A stretch of 64,000 bases of DNA from Mycobacteriaceae bacterium (GCA_019749805.1 JAIEPH010000021.1:41779-105778); one strand, 5' to 3'. Positions 57,204 to 64,000 are shown, counted from the first letter of the stretch. Numbers and translations are program-made. Notes: generated from the letters alone by a model not told the origin.

Positions 57204-58274
57204 TTAGTCGACGGTCCAGGTGTCTTTGCCGCGGAGCAGCGACTGCAACGCGGCCGTGTCGTGCGGCTTGGCATCGCGCGCCGCGGCGACCTGCTGGCGG
57301 GCGGCGTCGTCGTAGGTCGGCTTGCTGACCTTCCGGAAGATCCCCATCACCATGTGGTCGAGGTTCTGCTCGGAGAGCCGCGACAGCGCGAACGCGTACG
57401 CCGGATCCTCCAGCTGCGCGTCGTGGACGACGATCTCGTCGGCCGACACATCGGCGGTCTTGGCGACCTCGAGCCCGTAGCCCGACTTGACGACGCAGTA
57501 TTCGCCATCGCCGCCGAAGGTGATCGGCTCGCCGTGGGTCAGGTTGATGAGTCGCTCCTCGGCGCCTTCCTTGCGTAGTGCGTCGAACGAGCCGTCGTTG
57601 AAGATCGGGCAGTCCTGCATGATCTCGACGAGCGCGGCGCCGCGGTGCTCGGCGGCGCCACGAAGCACCTCGGACAGGCCTTTGCGGTCGGAGTCCAGGG
57701 CGCGGCCAACGAATGTCGCCTCGGCACCGAGCGCCAACGACACCGGATTGAACGGGTAGTCCAGCGAACCCATCGGGGTCGACTTGGTGACCTTGCCCGT
57801 CTCTGACGTCGGCGAGTACTGCCCCTTGGTCAGACCGTAGATCCGGTTGTTGAACAGCAGGATCGTCAGATTCACGTTGCGACGTAGCGCATGGATCAGA
57901 TGGTTGCCGCCGATCGACAGCGCGTCGCCGTCACCGGTGACGACCCACACCGACAGGTCTTGGCGGGCCAGCGCCAGTCCCGTCGCGATCGTCGGCGCAC
58001 GGCCGTGAATCGAGTGGAATCCGTAGGTCTGCAGGTAGTACGGGAATCGGCTCGAGCAGCCGATACCGCTGACGAACGCAATGTTCTCGCGACGCAGCCC
58101 GAGCTCGGGTAGGAAGTTGCGGATGGTGTTGAGGATGACGTAGTCGCCGCAACCGGGGCACCAGCGGACCTCCTGGTCGCTGGTGAAATCCTTCGACTTC
58201 TGTGGCTCGTCTGTCGTTGGAACCAAGCTGGTTCCAGCCGTCAGCCCGAGGTCTGCACCAATCAGGTCAGTCAT
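57204..58274 (-). CDS. korB: 2-oxoglutarate:ferredoxin oxidoreductase beta subunit
   Basis: WCPGCGD, GIGCS and the TPP motif [12 protein letters not shown]...NN. Confidence 0.95.
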
Positions 58275-60211
58275 GCGCTAGCTCCCACACCAGTTTCCAC
58301 GGTGGCCGCGGCCAGCCGTGCAAACTTGGCCTTGTCAATTTCCTTGTCGCCCAACGTTCCGTCGAGCGCAGCGTCGATGATCCCTTCGACCTCGTCGGCC
58401 AGGAATGCCATGCCCTCCACCTTGGTCACCGACTGAACGTCGACCAGGTACTTGCCGCGCAGCAGCAGCGCCAGCTGGCCGAGGTTCATCTCCGGCAACA
58501 CCACGTTGGGGTAGCGCCGCAGCACCTCGCCCAGGTTGGCGGGGAAGGGGCTGAGATTGCGCAGGTGCGCCTGGGCCACCTTGATGCCCTTACGCCGCGC
58601 GCGACGGCATGCTTCGCCGATGGGGCCGTAGCTGCTCCCCCAGCCGAGCATCAACAGCTCCGCGTCGCCGGTGGGGTCGTCGACCTCGAGGTCCGGCACG
58701 GTGATGCCGTCGACTTTGGCTTGGCGCAGCCGCACCATCAGGTCGTGGTTCTTCGGCTCGTAGGAGATGTTGCCCGAGCCGTTGGCCGCCTCCAGCCCGC
58801 CGATGCGGTGCTCGAGACCTGGAGTGCCCGGGACCGCGAACTGGCGGGCCAGCGTCTCGGGGTCACGCGCATACGGCTGGAAGGGCTCACCCGTCTTAAC
58901 GAAGGTGTGCTCGATCTTCTCGTAGGTGCTGACGTCCGGGATCTGCCACGGCTCAGAGCCGTTCGCGATCGCGCCGTCGGACAGGATGATCACGGGAGTG
59001 TGGTAGTTGATGGCGATGCGGACGGCCTCGACGGCGACGTCGAAGCAGTCCGACGGGGACCTCGGCGCCACCACCGCGACCGGAGATTCGCCGTTGCGCC
59101 CGAAGAGCACCTGCAGCAGGTCGGCCTGTTCGGTCTTGGTCGGGAGACCCGTCGAGGGGCCGCCGCGTTGCACGTCGATGACGATCAGCGGCAGTTCGGT
59201 CATCACCGCGAGCCCCATGGCCTCCGACTTCAGCGAGATACCGGGTCCGGAGGTGCTGGTGACGCCCAGCGCACCGCCGTACGACGCGCCGATCGCCGCG
59301 CCGATGCCCGCGATCTCGTCCTCGGCCTGGAAGGTCAGCACGTTGAAGTTCTTGTGCTTGGACAGCTCGTGCAGGATGTCCGACGCCGGGGTGATCGGGT
59401 AAGTGCCCAGCACCACCTGCAGCTCACTCAGTTGCCCTGCCGTGACGATCCCGTACGCCAGCGCGGTGTTACCCGAGATCTGCCGGTACTCACCGCTCTT
59501 GAGCTTGGCGGGCGCGACCTCGTAGACGCTGCCCGCGAAGGCCTCGGTCGTCTCGCCGTAATTCCAGCCGGCCTTGAGCGCCAGCACGTTGGCCTCGGCG
59601 ATGTCGGGCTTGCGGGCGAACTTCTCGCGGATGAACGCCTCGCTGTGCTCGAGCTCGCGGCCGTACATCCACGACAGCAGACCGAGAGCGAACATGTTCT
59701 TGGCGCGCTGGCCGTCCTTCTTCGACGCGCCGATCTCCTCGACCGCACCCAGCGTCAGCGTGGTCATCGGCACGGCCTGCACCACATAGTCGGACAGGTC
59801 GTCGTTCTCCAGGGGGTTGCCCTCATAGCCGACTTTCGCCAGATTGCGCTTGGTGAATTCGTCCGAGTTGGCGATGATCAGCCCACCGCGCGGCAGGTCG
59901 GAAACGTTGGCCATCAGCGCGGCGGGGTTCATCGCGACGAGAACGTCGGGACGGTCGCCCGCGGTCAGGATGTCGTAGTCGGCAATCTGGATCTGGAAGG
60001 ACGACACCCCGGGCAGCGTGCCCTGTGGCGCGCGGATCTCCGCGGGGTAATTCGGTTGCGTCGCAAGGTCATTGCCGAAGAGCGCGGCCTCGGAGGTGAA
60101 GCGGTCACCCGTGAGCTGCATGCCGTCACCGGAGTCGCCCGCGAAACGAATGACCACCTTTTCGAGCTTCTGTCTGGTGCCCGGGTTGGCCCCGTTGCCG
60201 TTGGCCCCCAC
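58271..60211 (-). CDS. korA: 2-oxoglutarate:ferredoxin oxidoreductase alpha subunit
   Basis: AGDSGDGMQL, YPITPAS, QAEDE, TSGPG and QRGGPSTGLPT. Confidence 0.95.
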   Translation of the reverse strand: MGANGNGANPGTRQKLEKVVIRFAGDSGDGMQLTGDRFTSEAALFGNDLATQPNYPAEIRAPQGTLPGVSSFQIQIADYDILTAGDRPDVLVAMNPAALMANVSDLPRGGLIIANSDEFTKRNLAKVGYEGNPLENDDLSDYVVQAVPMTTLTLGAVEEIGASKKDGQRAKNMFALGLLSWMYGRELEHSEAFIREKFARKPDIAEANVLALKAGWNYGETTEAFAGSVYEVAPAKLKSGEYRQISGNTALAYGIVTAGQLSELQVVLGTYPITPASDILHELSKHKNFNVLTFQAEDEIAGIGAAIGASYGGALGVTSTSGPGISLKSEAMGLAVMTELPLIVIDVQRGGPSTGLPTKTEQADLLQVLFGRNGESPVAVVAPRSPSDCFDVAVEAVRIAINYHTPVIILSDGAIANGSEPWQIPDVSTYEKIEHTFVKTGEPFQPYARDPETLARQFAVPGTPGLEHRIGGLEAANGSGNISYEPKNHDLMVRLRQAKVDGITVPDLEVDDPTGDAELLMLGWGSSYGPIGEACRRARRKGIKVAQAHLRNLSPFPANLGEVLRRYPNVVLPEMNLGQLALLLRGKYLVDVQSVTKVEGMAFLADEVEGIIDAALDGTLGDKEIDKAKFARLAAATVETGVGASA

Positions 60212-60524: not shown

Positions 60525-61529
60525 CTACGGCGGCAAGTTGTAGGGCGTGATGATCTGGATGGGCACCGGCCGCGCCGACTCCACCGGCAACGCGCCCTGC
60601 TGTTGGAGTATCAGGCGCATCGCCAGGCGCGCGTCGGCGCGAAGATCGTTGCGCAGGACGACCGAGATGCGCCCGTCACGCAAAAGCTGTCTGTTGTCGA
60701 CGTCCAGATCATGGGCAACGAAAACCCTGCACAACCGCCCCAATCGTTCGAAGGCCGCGATCGTCGCGGTGTTGCCACCCCCGACCGAGTAGACGGCTGC
60801 GACCTCTGGATGGCGCTCGAGCGCCTGGAGAACCAACCGCTCGTTCGTCGAATCCAGCCCGTCGCTCTCGCTGACTTCCACGATTGTGCGGCCGGTGCCG
60901 CGCATCGCCGAGCGGAAGCCGACCTCGCGCTCACCCTCGCCGCGGAAAACCGCCCGGCTCAGCGTGATGAGGATGTCCGACGGCGCCGACCCCAGCCACT
61001 CCCGCATCAGATAGGCCGCCGTCACCCCGGCACCGTGGTTGTCGATGCCCACGTACGCGCAGCGCGCGCTCGCGGGAATGTCGGTCGTATACGTCACCAC
61101 CGGCACACCGCCTTCGACGAGGCGGTCGACGGCCTCGGCCACCGCCGGGTCGTCCTGGGCCTTGAGTACGACGCCGTGGCTGCCCTTGATGCGGCCGAGC
61201 GCCTCCACCATCTGTTCCGTTGATCCGGACTCCCACAGATGAAAGCGGGCGCGCAGCGCGGCGGGCGCGAAGGCGGGCAGCTCGGCCTCGATGGCGGCGC
61301 GAAACGCATCGGAGAACCGCTCCGGCGTCTGCATCACGATGTCGATGAGGTAGCGGCGGCCGTTCAGGCGCAGCTGAGCCCGCTGCTTGTCGAGATCCGC
61401 GATCGCCTGCTCGACTTCGGCCCTGGTGTTCGCGCGGACGCCGGGCCGTTGGTTGAGGACGCGATCGACAGTTGCCTCGCTCAGCCCGGACTGCTGGGCG
61501 ATCTCGCGAACTTTGTAGCGGTGCGGCAT
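60525..61529 (-). CDS. LacI family transcriptional regulator
   Basis: HTH 'VREIAQQSGLSEATVDRVLN' plus a periplasmic-binding-like domain (YVGIDN). Confidence 0.93.
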   Translation of the reverse strand: MPHRYKVREIAQQSGLSEATVDRVLNQRPGVRANTRAEVEQAIADLDKQRAQLRLNGRRYLIDIVMQTPERFSDAFRAAIEAELPAFAPAALRARFHLWESGSTEQMVEALGRIKGSHGVVLKAQDDPAVAEAVDRLVEGGVPVVTYTTDIPASARCAYVGIDNHGAGVTAAYLMREWLGSAPSDILITLSRAVFRGEGEREVGFRSAMRGTGRTIVEVSESDGLDSTNERLVLQALERHPEVAAVYSVGGGNTATIAAFERLGRLCRVFVAHDLDVDNRQLLRDGRISVVLRNDLRADARLAMRLILQQQGALPVESARPVPIQIITPYNLPP

Positions 61530-61601
61530 CGATCTTCCTAAGGTGTTTTTGATGGATTTCTGGCGTTGATTGCGGCGACTGTCACAGCAAGACTAACTGG
61601 C

Positions 61602-62765
61602 ATGACCGCACCGGTGAGGACCACAGACCCGCCGTGGATCGGCGAGTCCGAATGCCGGATCGACGACTTCCGGACACAGGTGCTCTGCGACACCGAACGC
61701 GCCGACTACCCGAACGCCACCGATGTGCGGAGCAACGTGCCGGTGTACTCGGCCGCCGCGGTGGCCGGCGGCGACCGGCGCGAGCTGCAGGCGGAGTTGA
61801 TCCGCGCGCTCGCCGACGGGCCGGGCGTCGTGCTGTTCGAAAGCGCCTTTTCCCGTGACCTCGTCGACCGCGCGAACGAGGGCTTCTTCGCGATCATCGC
61901 CGCGCAGCGCGAGGCGGGCACGGCCGCGGGCGACCACTTCGGCAAGCCCGGCGCCAACGACCGGATCTGGAATGCCGCCCAGAAGCTCGCGCTGCACGCG
62001 CCGGATGTGTTTGCCGAGTACTACGCGAACGACATTCTCGCCATCGTCTGCCAGGCCTGGCTGGGCCCCCGCTACCAGGTCACCTCTCAGGTGAACGTCG
62101 TCAATCCCGGTGGCAACGCCCAGGTTCCGCACCGCGACTATCACCTCGGCTTCGTCCCCGACGAGCACCTTGCGCAGTATCCGGCGCATCTGCACCGGAC
62201 CTCAGCGGTGCTCACGCTGCAGGGCGCCGTCGCCCACTGCGATATGCCGGTCGAAAGCGGCCCCACGATGCTGCTGCCCCATTCGCAGCGGTTCGCGGGC
62301 GGCTACATCGCCTTCAATCGGCCCGAGTTCGTGAAGTTCTTCGCCGACCATCACGTGCAGCTGCCGCTGAACAAGGGTGATGCGGTGTTCTTCAACCCGG
62401 CGCTGTATCACGGTGCGGGACCGAATGTTTCGGGTGACATCCGCCGGATTGCGAACCTGCTTCAGGTGTCCTCGCCGTTCGGCCGGGCGATGGAGGCGCT
62501 GGACCGCACGGCGATGGTCCGCGCGATCTACCCCGCACTGCTGGCGATGAAGGCTGCCGGACGCCCGCAGCGCGACCTGCACAACGCGGTGGTCGCGACC
62601 GCGGAGGGCTACGCGTTCCCCACCAACCTCGACAGCGATCAACCCATCGGCAGCCTCGCCCCACTGAGTCAGGTCGACGCGGTGCTGGCGGCGCTGGACT
62701 CGAACCTCAGCGCGGACGAACTCGACGTCGTACTGCGCGCCCAACAAGAACGGAGAATGCCATGA
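61602..62765 (+). CDS. Phytanoyl-CoA dioxygenase (PhyH) family Fe(II)/2OG enzyme
   Basis: PHRDYH (HxD), GPTMLLPHS, GDAVFFNPALYHGAG and a terminal R in 'IRRIANL'. Confidence 0.88.
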   Translation: MTAPVRTTDPPWIGESECRIDDFRTQVLCDTERADYPNATDVRSNVPVYSAAAVAGGDRRELQAELIRALADGPGVVLFESAFSRDLVDRANEGFFAIIAAQREAGTAAGDHFGKPGANDRIWNAAQKLALHAPDVFAEYYANDILAIVCQAWLGPRYQVTSQVNVVNPGGNAQVPHRDYHLGFVPDEHLAQYPAHLHRTSAVLTLQGAVAHCDMPVESGPTMLLPHSQRFAGGYIAFNRPEFVKFFADHHVQLPLNKGDAVFFNPALYHGAGPNVSGDIRRIANLLQVSSPFGRAMEALDRTAMVRAIYPALLAMKAAGRPQRDLHNAVVATAEGYAFPTNLDSDQPIGSLAPLSQVDAVLAALDSNLSADELDVVLRAQQERRMP

Positions 62766-63769
62766 CCACCCTCGGCGTCATCGGACTGGGGCGCATCGGC
62801 GCGTTCCACACCGAAACACTCTCGGGCCTCGACAGCATCGACGGGTTGGTCATCACCGACGAGCGGCCCGACGTCGTCGCGGCCGTCGCCGCCAAACACG
62901 CTGCGAAAGCTGTTGATTCGGTCGATGCCCTGCTGGCGTCCGGAGTGGACGGGGTCGTCGTGTCCGCCGCGACACCCGCACACGCCGAGCTGACGCTGGC
63001 TGCAGTCGAGCGCGGCCTGCCCACGTTCTGTGAGAAGCCGATCGCCTCGACGGCGGTCGAGAGCGCGCGGGTGGCCGACGTGATCGCGCGGTCGGGTGTG
63101 CCGGTGCAGGTCGGCTATCAGCGACGGTTCGACGCCGCCTTCGCGGCCGCCAAGCGCGCGGTCGACGACGGCTCGCTGGGCGCTCTGCACACCGTGCGCA
63201 GCACGACGATGGACCCGGCTCCCCCGCCGATGGAGTACATCGCCGGTTCGGGTGGCATCTTCCGCGACTGCGCCGTGCACGATTTCGACGTGATCCGCTG
63301 GATCACGGGCCAGCAGGCCGTCGAGGTGTACGCCACCGGCAGCGTCCAAGGAGACCCGAAGTTCGCCGAGTTCGGCGATGTGGACACCGCCGCCGTGGTC
63401 GTCACCTTCGAAGGCGGCACGCTCGGGGTGGTGTCGGCGGCGCGCTACAACGCGCACGGCTACGACTGCCGCCTCGAAGTGCACGGCTTCCACGACACGG
63501 TGGTTGCCGGCTGGGATCAGGGAGTTCCGGTGCGAAATGTCGCCCCCGGCAACAGCTTTCCCGAGGGACCGGCACACCACTTCTTCATGGACCGCTTCAC
63601 CGAGGCGTTCCGTGCGGAGCTCAGCGCGTTCGTCGACGTGGTCAAGGGAAACGCCGCTCCGGCATGCACGGTGGCCGACGCGGTCGAGGTCGCGTGGCTG
63701 GCCGAAGCGGCCACCGAGTCGTTGCGCCGCCGTGTGCCGGTGAGCATCAAGGAAGTGAGGTCACGATGA
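62762..63769 (+). CDS. Gfo/Idh/MocA oxidoreductase (myo-inositol 2-dehydrogenase IolG-like)
   Basis: GLGRIG, CEKP, VGYQRRFD, DCAVHDFD and GYDCRLEV. Confidence 0.88.
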   Translation: MTTLGVIGLGRIGAFHTETLSGLDSIDGLVITDERPDVVAAVAAKHAAKAVDSVDALLASGVDGVVVSAATPAHAELTLAAVERGLPTFCEKPIASTAVESARVADVIARSGVPVQVGYQRRFDAAFAAAKRAVDDGSLGALHTVRSTTMDPAPPPMEYIAGSGGIFRDCAVHDFDVIRWITGQQAVEVYATGSVQGDPKFAEFGDVDTAAVVVTFEGGTLGVVSAARYNAHGYDCRLEVHGFHDTVVAGWDQGVPVRNVAPGNSFPEGPAHHFFMDRFTEAFRAELSAFVDVVKGNAAPACTVADAVEVAWLAEAATESLRRRVPVSIKEVRSR

Positions 63770-64000
63770 AGTCCCTGAAGATTGCCGGTGCACCGATTTC
63801 GTGGGGAGTGTGCGAGGTACCCGGCTGGGGTCACCAGCTCAGCGCCGAGCGGGTGCTCACCGAGATGCGGGATGTCGGCCTGTCCGCCACCGAGTTGGGC
63901 CCCGAAGGCTTCCTGCCATCGGACCCCGAGGAGTTGACCGCCCTACTCGCGTCGAACGGTCTCAGCTGTGTCGGCATGTTCGTGCCCGTGCTGCTGCACG
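63766..64000 (+). CDS. Sugar phosphate isomerase/epimerase TIM barrel (inosose dehydratase IolE-like); 3'-truncated by the window edge
   Basis: Manual translation from the ATG at 63766 gives MKSLKIAGAPISWGVCEVPGWGHQL...ATELGPEGFLP. Confidence 0.8.
   Translation, partial: MKSLKIAGAPISWGVCEVPGWGHQLSAERVLTEMRDVGLSATELGPEGFLPSDPEELTALLASNGLSCVGMFVPVLLH

Follow-up and report, generated by a model that had tools for sequence, protein, structure and literature searches.

At the end of a 64,000-nucleotide stretch of a Mycobacteriaceae bacterium genome (G000, contig C120, positions 41779-105778; hereafter the window), the gene for a LacI-family regulator diverges from an operon that opens with a PhyH-family Fe(II)/2-oxoglutarate dioxygenase and continues with relatives of the inositol catabolic enzymes IolG and IolE. 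On balance, and at somewhat better than even probability, we regard these genes as an accessory operon of inositol catabolism under LacI repression, in which the oxygenase would unmask an unusual cyclitol for the inositol (iol) pathway; the repression and the class of substrate are both what we infer. This oxygenase accompanies inositol-breakdown genes in several bacterial lineages, and it therefore probably prepares an unusual plant cyclitol for the iol pathway. The source genome is that of a Mycolicibacterium close to M. tusciae, whose copy of the oxygenase (locus L014) is 96% identical to the one described here. The genes are laid out as follows, in window coordinates; positions in the sequence past the window (L001) are converted by adding 60222 to the L001 coordinate.

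60525-61529, minus strand: LacI-family transcriptional regulator gene, 334 aa, matching PF00356 and PF13407
61530-61601, no strand: divergent control region of 72 bp, between the LacI gene and the oxygenase gene
61602-62765, plus strand: PhyH-family Fe(II)/2-oxoglutarate dioxygenase gene (P0001), 387 aa, PF05721; first gene of the operon
62762-63769, plus strand: IolG-like, predicted NAD-dependent inositol dehydrogenase gene of the Gfo/Idh/MocA family (P0002), 335 aa, matching TIGR04380 and GFO/IDH/MocA
63766-64000 within the window (78 codons), ending at window-equivalent 64638 (L001:4416), plus strand: IolE-like TIM-barrel gene (P0003), 290 aa, PF01261, xylose-isomerase-like
Window-equivalent 64643-65605 (L001:4421-5383), plus strand: second Gfo/Idh/MocA gene (P0004), 320 aa, like KijD10 and 1,5-anhydro-D-fructose reductase (AFR)

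An earlier, sequence-only reading of the window had described a LacI gene divergent from dioxygenase, IolG-like and IolE-like genes joined by ATGA overlaps, and the open reading frames (ORFs), the Pfam matches and the sequence itself bear out this arrangement. The overlaps lie at 62762-62765, between the oxygenase and IolG-like genes, and at 63766-63769, between the IolG-like and IolE-like genes, and a gap of 4 nt separates the latter from the gene for P0004. For the oxygenase the start codon is the ATG at 61602 and not the listed TTG at 61566, because its homologues are 387 aa long and align from residue 1. The operon thus comprises four genes and extends 1.6 kb past the window. The expectation that it continues beyond the window was right for the remainder of the IolE-like gene and for the P0004 gene and wrong for anything further: the P0004 stop codon overlaps that of a convergent GAF-LuxR gene, and a P450 gene and an mce operon lie beyond.

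The same reading had advised looking downstream for iolD, iolB, iolC and transporter genes. None of these follows the operon in the sequence past the window; they reside in a separate and complete canonical iol cluster on the same contig, approximately 32 kb beyond the operon, with the following contents.

C120:134001-154000 (L013): inositol-type ABC transporter, iolC, Cgl0159-type aldolase, iolB, iolD (905 bits), an IolE-like gene, IolG, two further TIM barrels, and mmsA
L013:7175-7906, minus strand: ORF of 243 aa between the first TIM-barrel gene and iolC, taken as a putative GntR-type IolR

The IolG of this cluster is of the Bacillus subtilis type (PDB 3mz0, 3e-69). The two IolG-like proteins of the genome share 30% identity, and its two IolE-like proteins 31%. 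Because a separate complete cluster already supplies IolG and IolE in this genome, the four genes described here form an additional module and not the main pathway. Its accessory nature also follows from six other mycobacteria (L015, L021, L030 and L034-L036), where the operon stands right next to the inositol ABC transporter and the remaining iol genes. In the genome described here the corresponding interval (about 32 kb; L001:5380-20000 and L002, from window-equivalent 65602) is occupied by the GAF-LuxR gene, the P450 gene, the mce operon and other genes, and has the appearance of an insert in what was ancestrally one iol supercluster; the GAF-LuxR gene follows the operon in M. tusciae as well.

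The product of the first gene, P0001, matches PF05721 over profile positions 4-212 of 213 (107.6 bits, cut-off 22; E 1.4e-30). Its iron triad, H177-x-D179...H270, and R282 are intact and align with the motifs of EasH and TlxJ; the arginine of the PhyH active site serves to bind the C5 carboxylate of 2-oxoglutarate. Across 43 family members H270 is invariant (43/43), H177 and D179 are each retained in 39, and R282 in 40. The four deviating members have Arg at the H177 position and Ala, Val or Pro at that of D179 (P0198 and P0231, for example) and are probably non-catalytic paralogues. An AlphaFold2 model of P0001 (predicted local distance difference test score 93.8; predicted template modelling score 0.92) displays the double-stranded beta-helix of the PhyH fold. 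Foldseek matches this model to PrhA at E ~1e-14, and VIA aligns the two over approximately 267 residues with Z 23.2 and a root-mean-square deviation (rmsd) of 3.8, FtmOx1 and TlxJ likewise reaching Z ~23. Identity to any solved structure found by sequence or fold searches is 14-23%, and these structures are therefore uninformative on substrate: only generic PhyH relatives were matched, with no hint of a substrate among them, and the ESM Atlas returned only clusters named 'phytanoyl-CoA dioxygenase'. Judged by sequence clustering, the oxygenase family is large and distinct, with 320 clusters at 50% identity and E <= 1e-30, most of them 370-420 aa long and aligned over their full length. Three long forms (P0146, P0178 and P0127) are fused to a multicopper oxidase, to a HET domain (both eukaryote-like) or, in P0127, to a C-terminal rhodanese domain; these may be genuine fusions or merged gene models, and the fusion partners are uninformative on function. 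Full-text searches found no literature linking a PhyH dioxygenase to inositol genes.

The labels 'IolG-like' and 'IolE-like' given to the second and third genes are fair ones. The best solved relatives of P0002 are myo-inositol dehydrogenases (3ezy, 3e-62; 4hkt, 2e-59; 3euw, 4e-50) and those of P0003 are IolE proteins (9zmu, 2e-28; 3cny, 9e-26), so that both proteins stand by far nearer to inositol enzymes than to other Gfo or TIM-barrel families. The P0002 translation contains FCEKP and RDCAVHD, that is, the catalytic EKP lysine and the D-x-x-x-H motif by which inositol dehydrogenases have been defined (PMC9603128). The fourth protein, P0004, best matches the KijD10 sugar 3-ketoreductase (4e-29) and 1,5-anhydro-D-fructose reductase (2e-25), and is read as a reductase on the strength of these matches.

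We surveyed the neighbourhood of the oxygenase gene in 80 loci from species genomes, almost all of them Actinomycetota, and in 80 more distant metagenome loci whose oxygenases are 42-61% identical to the copy in the window; 63 and 26 of these, respectively, were fully flanked, with 5 kb or more on either side. Counting only loci with sufficient flank, the oxygenase gene has an orthologue of the divergent LacI gene (48-97% identity) immediately upstream in 64 of 77 actinobacterial cases and in 21 of 53 metagenome ones. An inositol dehydrogenase-like or iol core gene lies within 8 kb in 54 of the 63 fully flanked loci of actinobacterial origin, and orthologues of P0004 are found in 44 of them, a short-chain dehydrogenase/reductase (SDR; NCBIfam PRK06198 type) in 31, and an orthologue of the IolE-like gene in 24. 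The five-gene set of oxygenase, SDR, IolG-like, IolE-like and reductase genes occurs in Rhodococcus (L037) and in loci L044 and L151; Streptomyces copies are without the TIM barrel and mycobacterial copies without the SDR, of which no orthologue was found elsewhere in the present genome. In Streptomyces and Arthrobacter the iol cluster encloses the module; in Rhodococcus the module lies inside or beside that cluster. The sequence-only reading had tied the dioxygenase to the iol-like genes, and this holds across Actinomycetota: the gene is translationally coupled to them in the window and conserved both with them and with the LacI gene.

Conservation with iol genes extends beyond the Actinomycetota to some iol operons of unrelated low-GC lineages, the oxygenase lying inside such operons in contigs L096, L099, L101, L113, L123, L150 and L170, and fails in most metagenome loci, where LacI (33 of all 80) and the SDR (25 of 80) are the constant partners. 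In L101 the oxygenase directly precedes an iolG that scores above the TIGR04380 cut-off (453 bits), in a cluster with bona fide iolE, iolC, iolB and iolD. Placement directly before iolG recurs in lineages of GC 42% to 72%, and this repeated order of oxygenase and then dehydrogenase suggests that the oxygenase product is an inositol. The L101 contig (metagenome, GC 45%) is unusual in its own right: a 17-kb stretch holds two parallel lower-pathway sets, with iolC, iolB and iolD present twice together with a class II aldolase and an iolC-iolJ fusion, and the oxygenase and iolG lie between the two sets.

The distribution of the oxygenase is nested within that of iolD. In an even set of 401 Actinomycetota genomes, 70 were iolD-positive (a count that includes four unpublished genomes, G318, G120, G018 and G174, all iolD-positive and oxygenase-negative, which enter into no other result given here), and all 12 genomes with the oxygenase were among them. 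In the genus of the window, three of seven genomes have both the oxygenase and iolD and the other four have neither. Five further genomes, in which the oxygenase has no iol neighbour, likewise contain iolD above the cut-off (5/5, including Anaeromyxobacter oryzae), bringing the oxygenase-positive genomes with iolD to 17 of the 17 tested. Anaeromyxobacter oryzae (L091) is the sole carrier of the oxygenase among 301 Myxococcota genomes; its copy is 59% identical to actinobacterial ones, lies 260 kb from iolD, and was likely acquired horizontally. Taken with the neighbourhoods, these profiles leave the link of the oxygenase family to cyclitol catabolism well supported.

The regulation of the operon seems to be its own. 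The LacI protein has the N-terminal helix-turn-helix (PF00356, 38.2 bits; cut-off 27) and the periplasmic-binding-protein-like effector domain (PF13407, Peripla_BP_4, 99.1 bits; cut-off 35.1) of its family, and is presumed to repress the divergent operon. A putative promoter for the oxygenase consists of a -35 element, TTGATT (61566-61571), and a -10 element, AAGACT (61589-61594), which would end about 7 nt before the ATG; because of this short distance the oxygenase mRNA may be leaderless. An imperfect palindrome across the promoter spacer (61570-61590) is a candidate operator. About 20 nt upstream of the putative -35 lies a T-rich, non-palindromic motif, GGTGTTTTTGATGG (61542-61555), which could serve as an UP-like element or as a site for a regulator. 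Its core, TTTTTGANG, is found in 55 of 66 orthologous LacI-oxygenase intergenic regions from Mycobacterium, Streptomyces, Rhodococcus and Arthrobacter copies, and in mycobacteria it stands a constant ~56 nt from the oxygenase start despite a spacer of varying length; the 14-mer itself is unique in the genome, allowing at most one mismatch. A scan for consensus promoters and terminators yielded nothing useful, and a palindrome in the oxygenase promoter of the Streptomyces locus L086 has no second copy within 17 kb.

A different element marks the canonical cluster. The 17-nt box TAGTTTGTCCTGACATT has exactly two copies in the genome (L013:6275-6291 and L013:7977-7993; C120:140275 and 141977), both within that cluster, in divergent promoter regions adjoining the ORF taken as a putative GntR-type regulator, and it is probably the IolR operator. 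The LacI-oxygenase intergenic region lacks this box, its best match having 4 mismatches in 12, and it seems, accordingly, that the module is governed by a LacI-type regulator of its own. The same absence leaves co-regulation with the iol genes unsupported, a point that we count below against the proposed cyclitol-unmasking role.

From the gene order and the enzyme families we propose the following route. An unusual cyclitol would enter the cell, probably via the inositol ABC transporter, and release the LacI-family repressor. The dioxygenase would then perform a single oxidative unmasking step, hydroxylating either an O-methyl group, with release of formaldehyde, or a deoxy carbon, to give an ordinary inositol, which the IolG-like dehydrogenase would oxidize to an inosose. 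The IolE-like enzyme would dehydrate or isomerize the inosose and the NADPH-type ketoreductase would correct its stereochemistry, the products feeding the canonical IolD/B/C/J/A pathway encoded some 32 kb away. The order of these reactions, like the choice of transporter, is part of the proposal. Candidate reactions for the oxygenase are thus O-demethylation of methyl-inositols and hydroxylation of deoxy-inositols; an oxidative deamination such as that of KanJ appears less likely, because a dehydrogenase follows the oxygenase.

Known systems resemble the module in part. In the canonical catabolism of myo-inositol by IolG, E, D, B, C, J and A (Bacillus subtilis, Corynebacterium glutamicum, Caulobacter) the nearest relatives of the second and third operon genes are IolG and IolE, and the module has a full iol cluster beside it or in its vicinity and, among the genomes searched, occurs only in iolD-positive ones. 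The canonical pathway has no oxygenase and is governed by a GntR-type IolR, whereas the module has an oxygenase and a LacI-type regulator of its own; the present genome has a separate IolG/IolE pair, and the module proteins do not reach the equivalog cut-offs. In Sinorhizobium, the catabolism of rhizopine (3-O-methyl-scyllo-inosamine) provides a precedent for an oxygenase, MocDEF, that demethylates a cyclitol ether, after which the inositol-type enzymes MocA, a dehydrogenase, and MocC, which is IolE-like, act. MocDEF comprises a membrane-type oxygenase, a Rieske ferredoxin and a reductase, families that are unrelated to PhyH and not Fe(II)/2-oxoglutarate-dependent. By gene types the module is also like C. 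glutamicum's oxiC-cg3390-oxiD-oxiE operon, in which accessory Gfo/Idh/MocA oxidoreductases surround a TIM barrel of the sugar-phosphate-isomerase type and provide additional inositol dehydrogenase activities alongside the main iol cluster; this operon differs in having neither a dioxygenase nor a LacI regulator (PMC9603128).

Several observations weigh against a cyclitol-unmasking accessory operon. P0002 scores 322.2 bits on TIGR04380, the IolG equivalog, which is still its best family and is below the cut-off of 355, and it is accordingly classed from its sequence as IolG-like and not as IolG; P0003 reaches 170.8 bits on the IolE equivalog TIGR04379, below the cut-off of 290. The IolE that adjoins iolD in the canonical cluster of the same genome scores only 136 bits on TIGR04379, and this cut-off may therefore be a strict one for proteins from actinobacteria. 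The operon includes no transporter gene, and its promoter, as noted, lacks the presumed IolR box. Related genomes are not independent, so that the counts overstate the weight of the nesting within iolD. In Erwinia, use of D-pinitol required iolG and iolE, no demethylase was identified, and candidate demethylases were dispensable, from which the authors of this work, the only one our searches turned up that sought such an enzyme, concluded that the two iol genes are enough (PMC9788770); methyl-inositol use is therefore not always oxygenase-dependent. Finally, most copies outside the Actinomycetota keep only LacI and/or the SDR, amid unrelated housekeeping genes: in the fully flanked metagenome loci iol genes lie within 8 kb in only 4 of 26, 8 of 26 lack any partner, and the other recurrent neighbours (DUF1194, gamma-glutamyltranspeptidase, LysR, NnrU, Asd and PNPase) are unrelated.

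This last pattern is the basis of the chief alternative, that there are two modules: LacI and PhyH, with or without the SDR, would constitute a unit complete in itself, devoted to some other small polar substrate, which in Actinomycetota has become attached to redundant inositol genes. The partner frequencies in the fully flanked metagenome loci, LacI in 13 of 26 and the SDR in 8 against iol genes in 4, with unrelated genes such as those for PNPase, Asd and gamma-glutamyltranspeptidase as other neighbours, are what such a unit would leave, and the redundant inositol dehydrogenases of the C. glutamicum accessory Gfo-TIM-Gfo-Gfo operon, which has no oxygenase, are a precedent for redundant inositol genes (PMC9603128). 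Against it stand the presence of iolD in every oxygenase-positive genome tested, the oxygenase directly before iolG in lineages across that wide range of GC content, and the translational coupling of the mycobacterial oxygenase to the IolG-like gene; we consider this alternative unlikely. A deamination after the manner of KanJ and KanK, in which the dioxygenase would convert an aminocyclitol (scyllo-inosamine or a related inosamine) to an inosose, and the ketoreductase and dehydrogenases would then make pathway intermediates, we hold to be distinctly improbable. The KanJ/KanK pair of kanamycin biosynthesis does combine a PhyH-fold 2-oxoglutarate dioxygenase with an NADPH ketoreductase on a polyhydroxylated ring, a logic that the KijD10/AFR-type ketoreductase of the operon would match, and KanJ aligns with the P0001 model at Z 20.1 (rmsd 3.3 over 253 residues). 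It differs in being biosynthetic and in acting on an aminoglycoside, and at 14-15% identity that Z score places the two proteins in one superfamily without pointing to a specific kinship: KanJ ranks below some 45 other PhyH entries, and PrhA, FtmOx1, TlxJ and EasH match slightly better. Were the product an inosose, moreover, the IolG-type dehydrogenase found time and again behind the oxygenase would be superfluous, and the neighbour surveys show neither an ammonia-handling nor an aminotransferase gene accompanying the module.

Two other possibilities take an ordinary inositol or inosose as the substrate or change the substrate class. The oxygenase might act directly on ordinary inositol or inosose as an aerobic shortcut, oxidizing a carbinol C-H to a ketone at the expense of O2 or hydroxylating further. 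Fe(II)/2-oxoglutarate enzymes can oxidize alcohols through gem-diols, and a substrate imported by the inositol system would call for no extra transporter; NAD-dependent dehydrogenases for the ketone-forming step are nevertheless already present twice, and a dedicated LacI regulator, which stands apart from the probable IolR operator, speaks for a separate inducer, so that we think this very unlikely. Alternatively, the Gfo dehydrogenase, xylose-isomerase-like TIM barrel and Gfo reductase, the gene types of levoglucosan and 3-keto-glycoside pathways, could form a trio like LgdA/LgdB/LgdC that cleaves an anhydrosugar or glycoside by oxidation or 3-keto elimination, the dioxygenase modifying the aglycone or the sugar. 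The NCBIfam matches to levoglucosan dehydrogenase and glycoside 3-dehydrogenases are weak (LevoglcsnDh, 57.5 bits for P0002 and 69.9 for P0004 against a cut-off of 650; BT_2159, 49.6 against 650), whereas P0002 reaches 322 of the 355 bits set for IolG. Because these scores are about one tenth of the cut-offs, the keto-glycoside assignment was rejected; the best solved relatives of the TIM barrel being IolE proteins, and no glycosidase or sugar kinase lying nearby in the annotated sequence past the window, we regard oxidative glycoside cleavage as most unlikely of all.

We therefore return to the unmasking of a cyclitol. The sequence-only reading had proposed an uncharacterised, oxygenase-dependent entry to cyclitol catabolism, with O-demethylation or attack on an aminocyclitol as conjectural chemistry, and translational coupling, conservation, co-occurrence with iolD and the lack of any paper in our searches together make this a reasonable reading, even though the iol genes that might have been expected downstream are absent. 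Inositols in methylated or deoxygenated form make up major pools of soluble carbon in legumes, pines, oaks and some algae, and we know of no bacterial enzyme that removes their methyl or deoxy modifications. A conserved, regulator-equipped Fe(II)/2-oxoglutarate oxygenase that recurs within or next to iol clusters offers a concrete candidate for this step. Carried further, the argument would make the 387-aa PhyH subfamily the bacterial enzyme that turns substituted cyclitols (most likely O-methyl-inositols of plants, pinitol or ononitol for instance, or deoxy-inositols such as quercitols) into ordinary inositols, and the first oxygenase-dependent entry to the iol pathway, distributed in soil Actinomycetota and marine low-GC lineages with a LacI-type sensor of its own; we advance this stronger proposal tentatively and would sooner expect it to fail than to hold. 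If cyclitol unmasking is correct, the textbook inositol pathway would be extended, a specific LacI-type biosensor for a plant cyclitol would become available, and the use of rhizosphere and litter carbon by Actinomycetota would be explained in part.

Just upstream of the LacI gene, at window positions 57204-60211, lie korAB, encoding a 2-oxoglutarate:ferredoxin oxidoreductase, and a MobA-like gene. A functional tie between korAB and an oxygenase that uses 2-oxoglutarate is not evident, and we read the adjacency as synteny; korA/korB-sized gene clusters occupy the equivalent position in 19-20 of the 80 species-genome loci.

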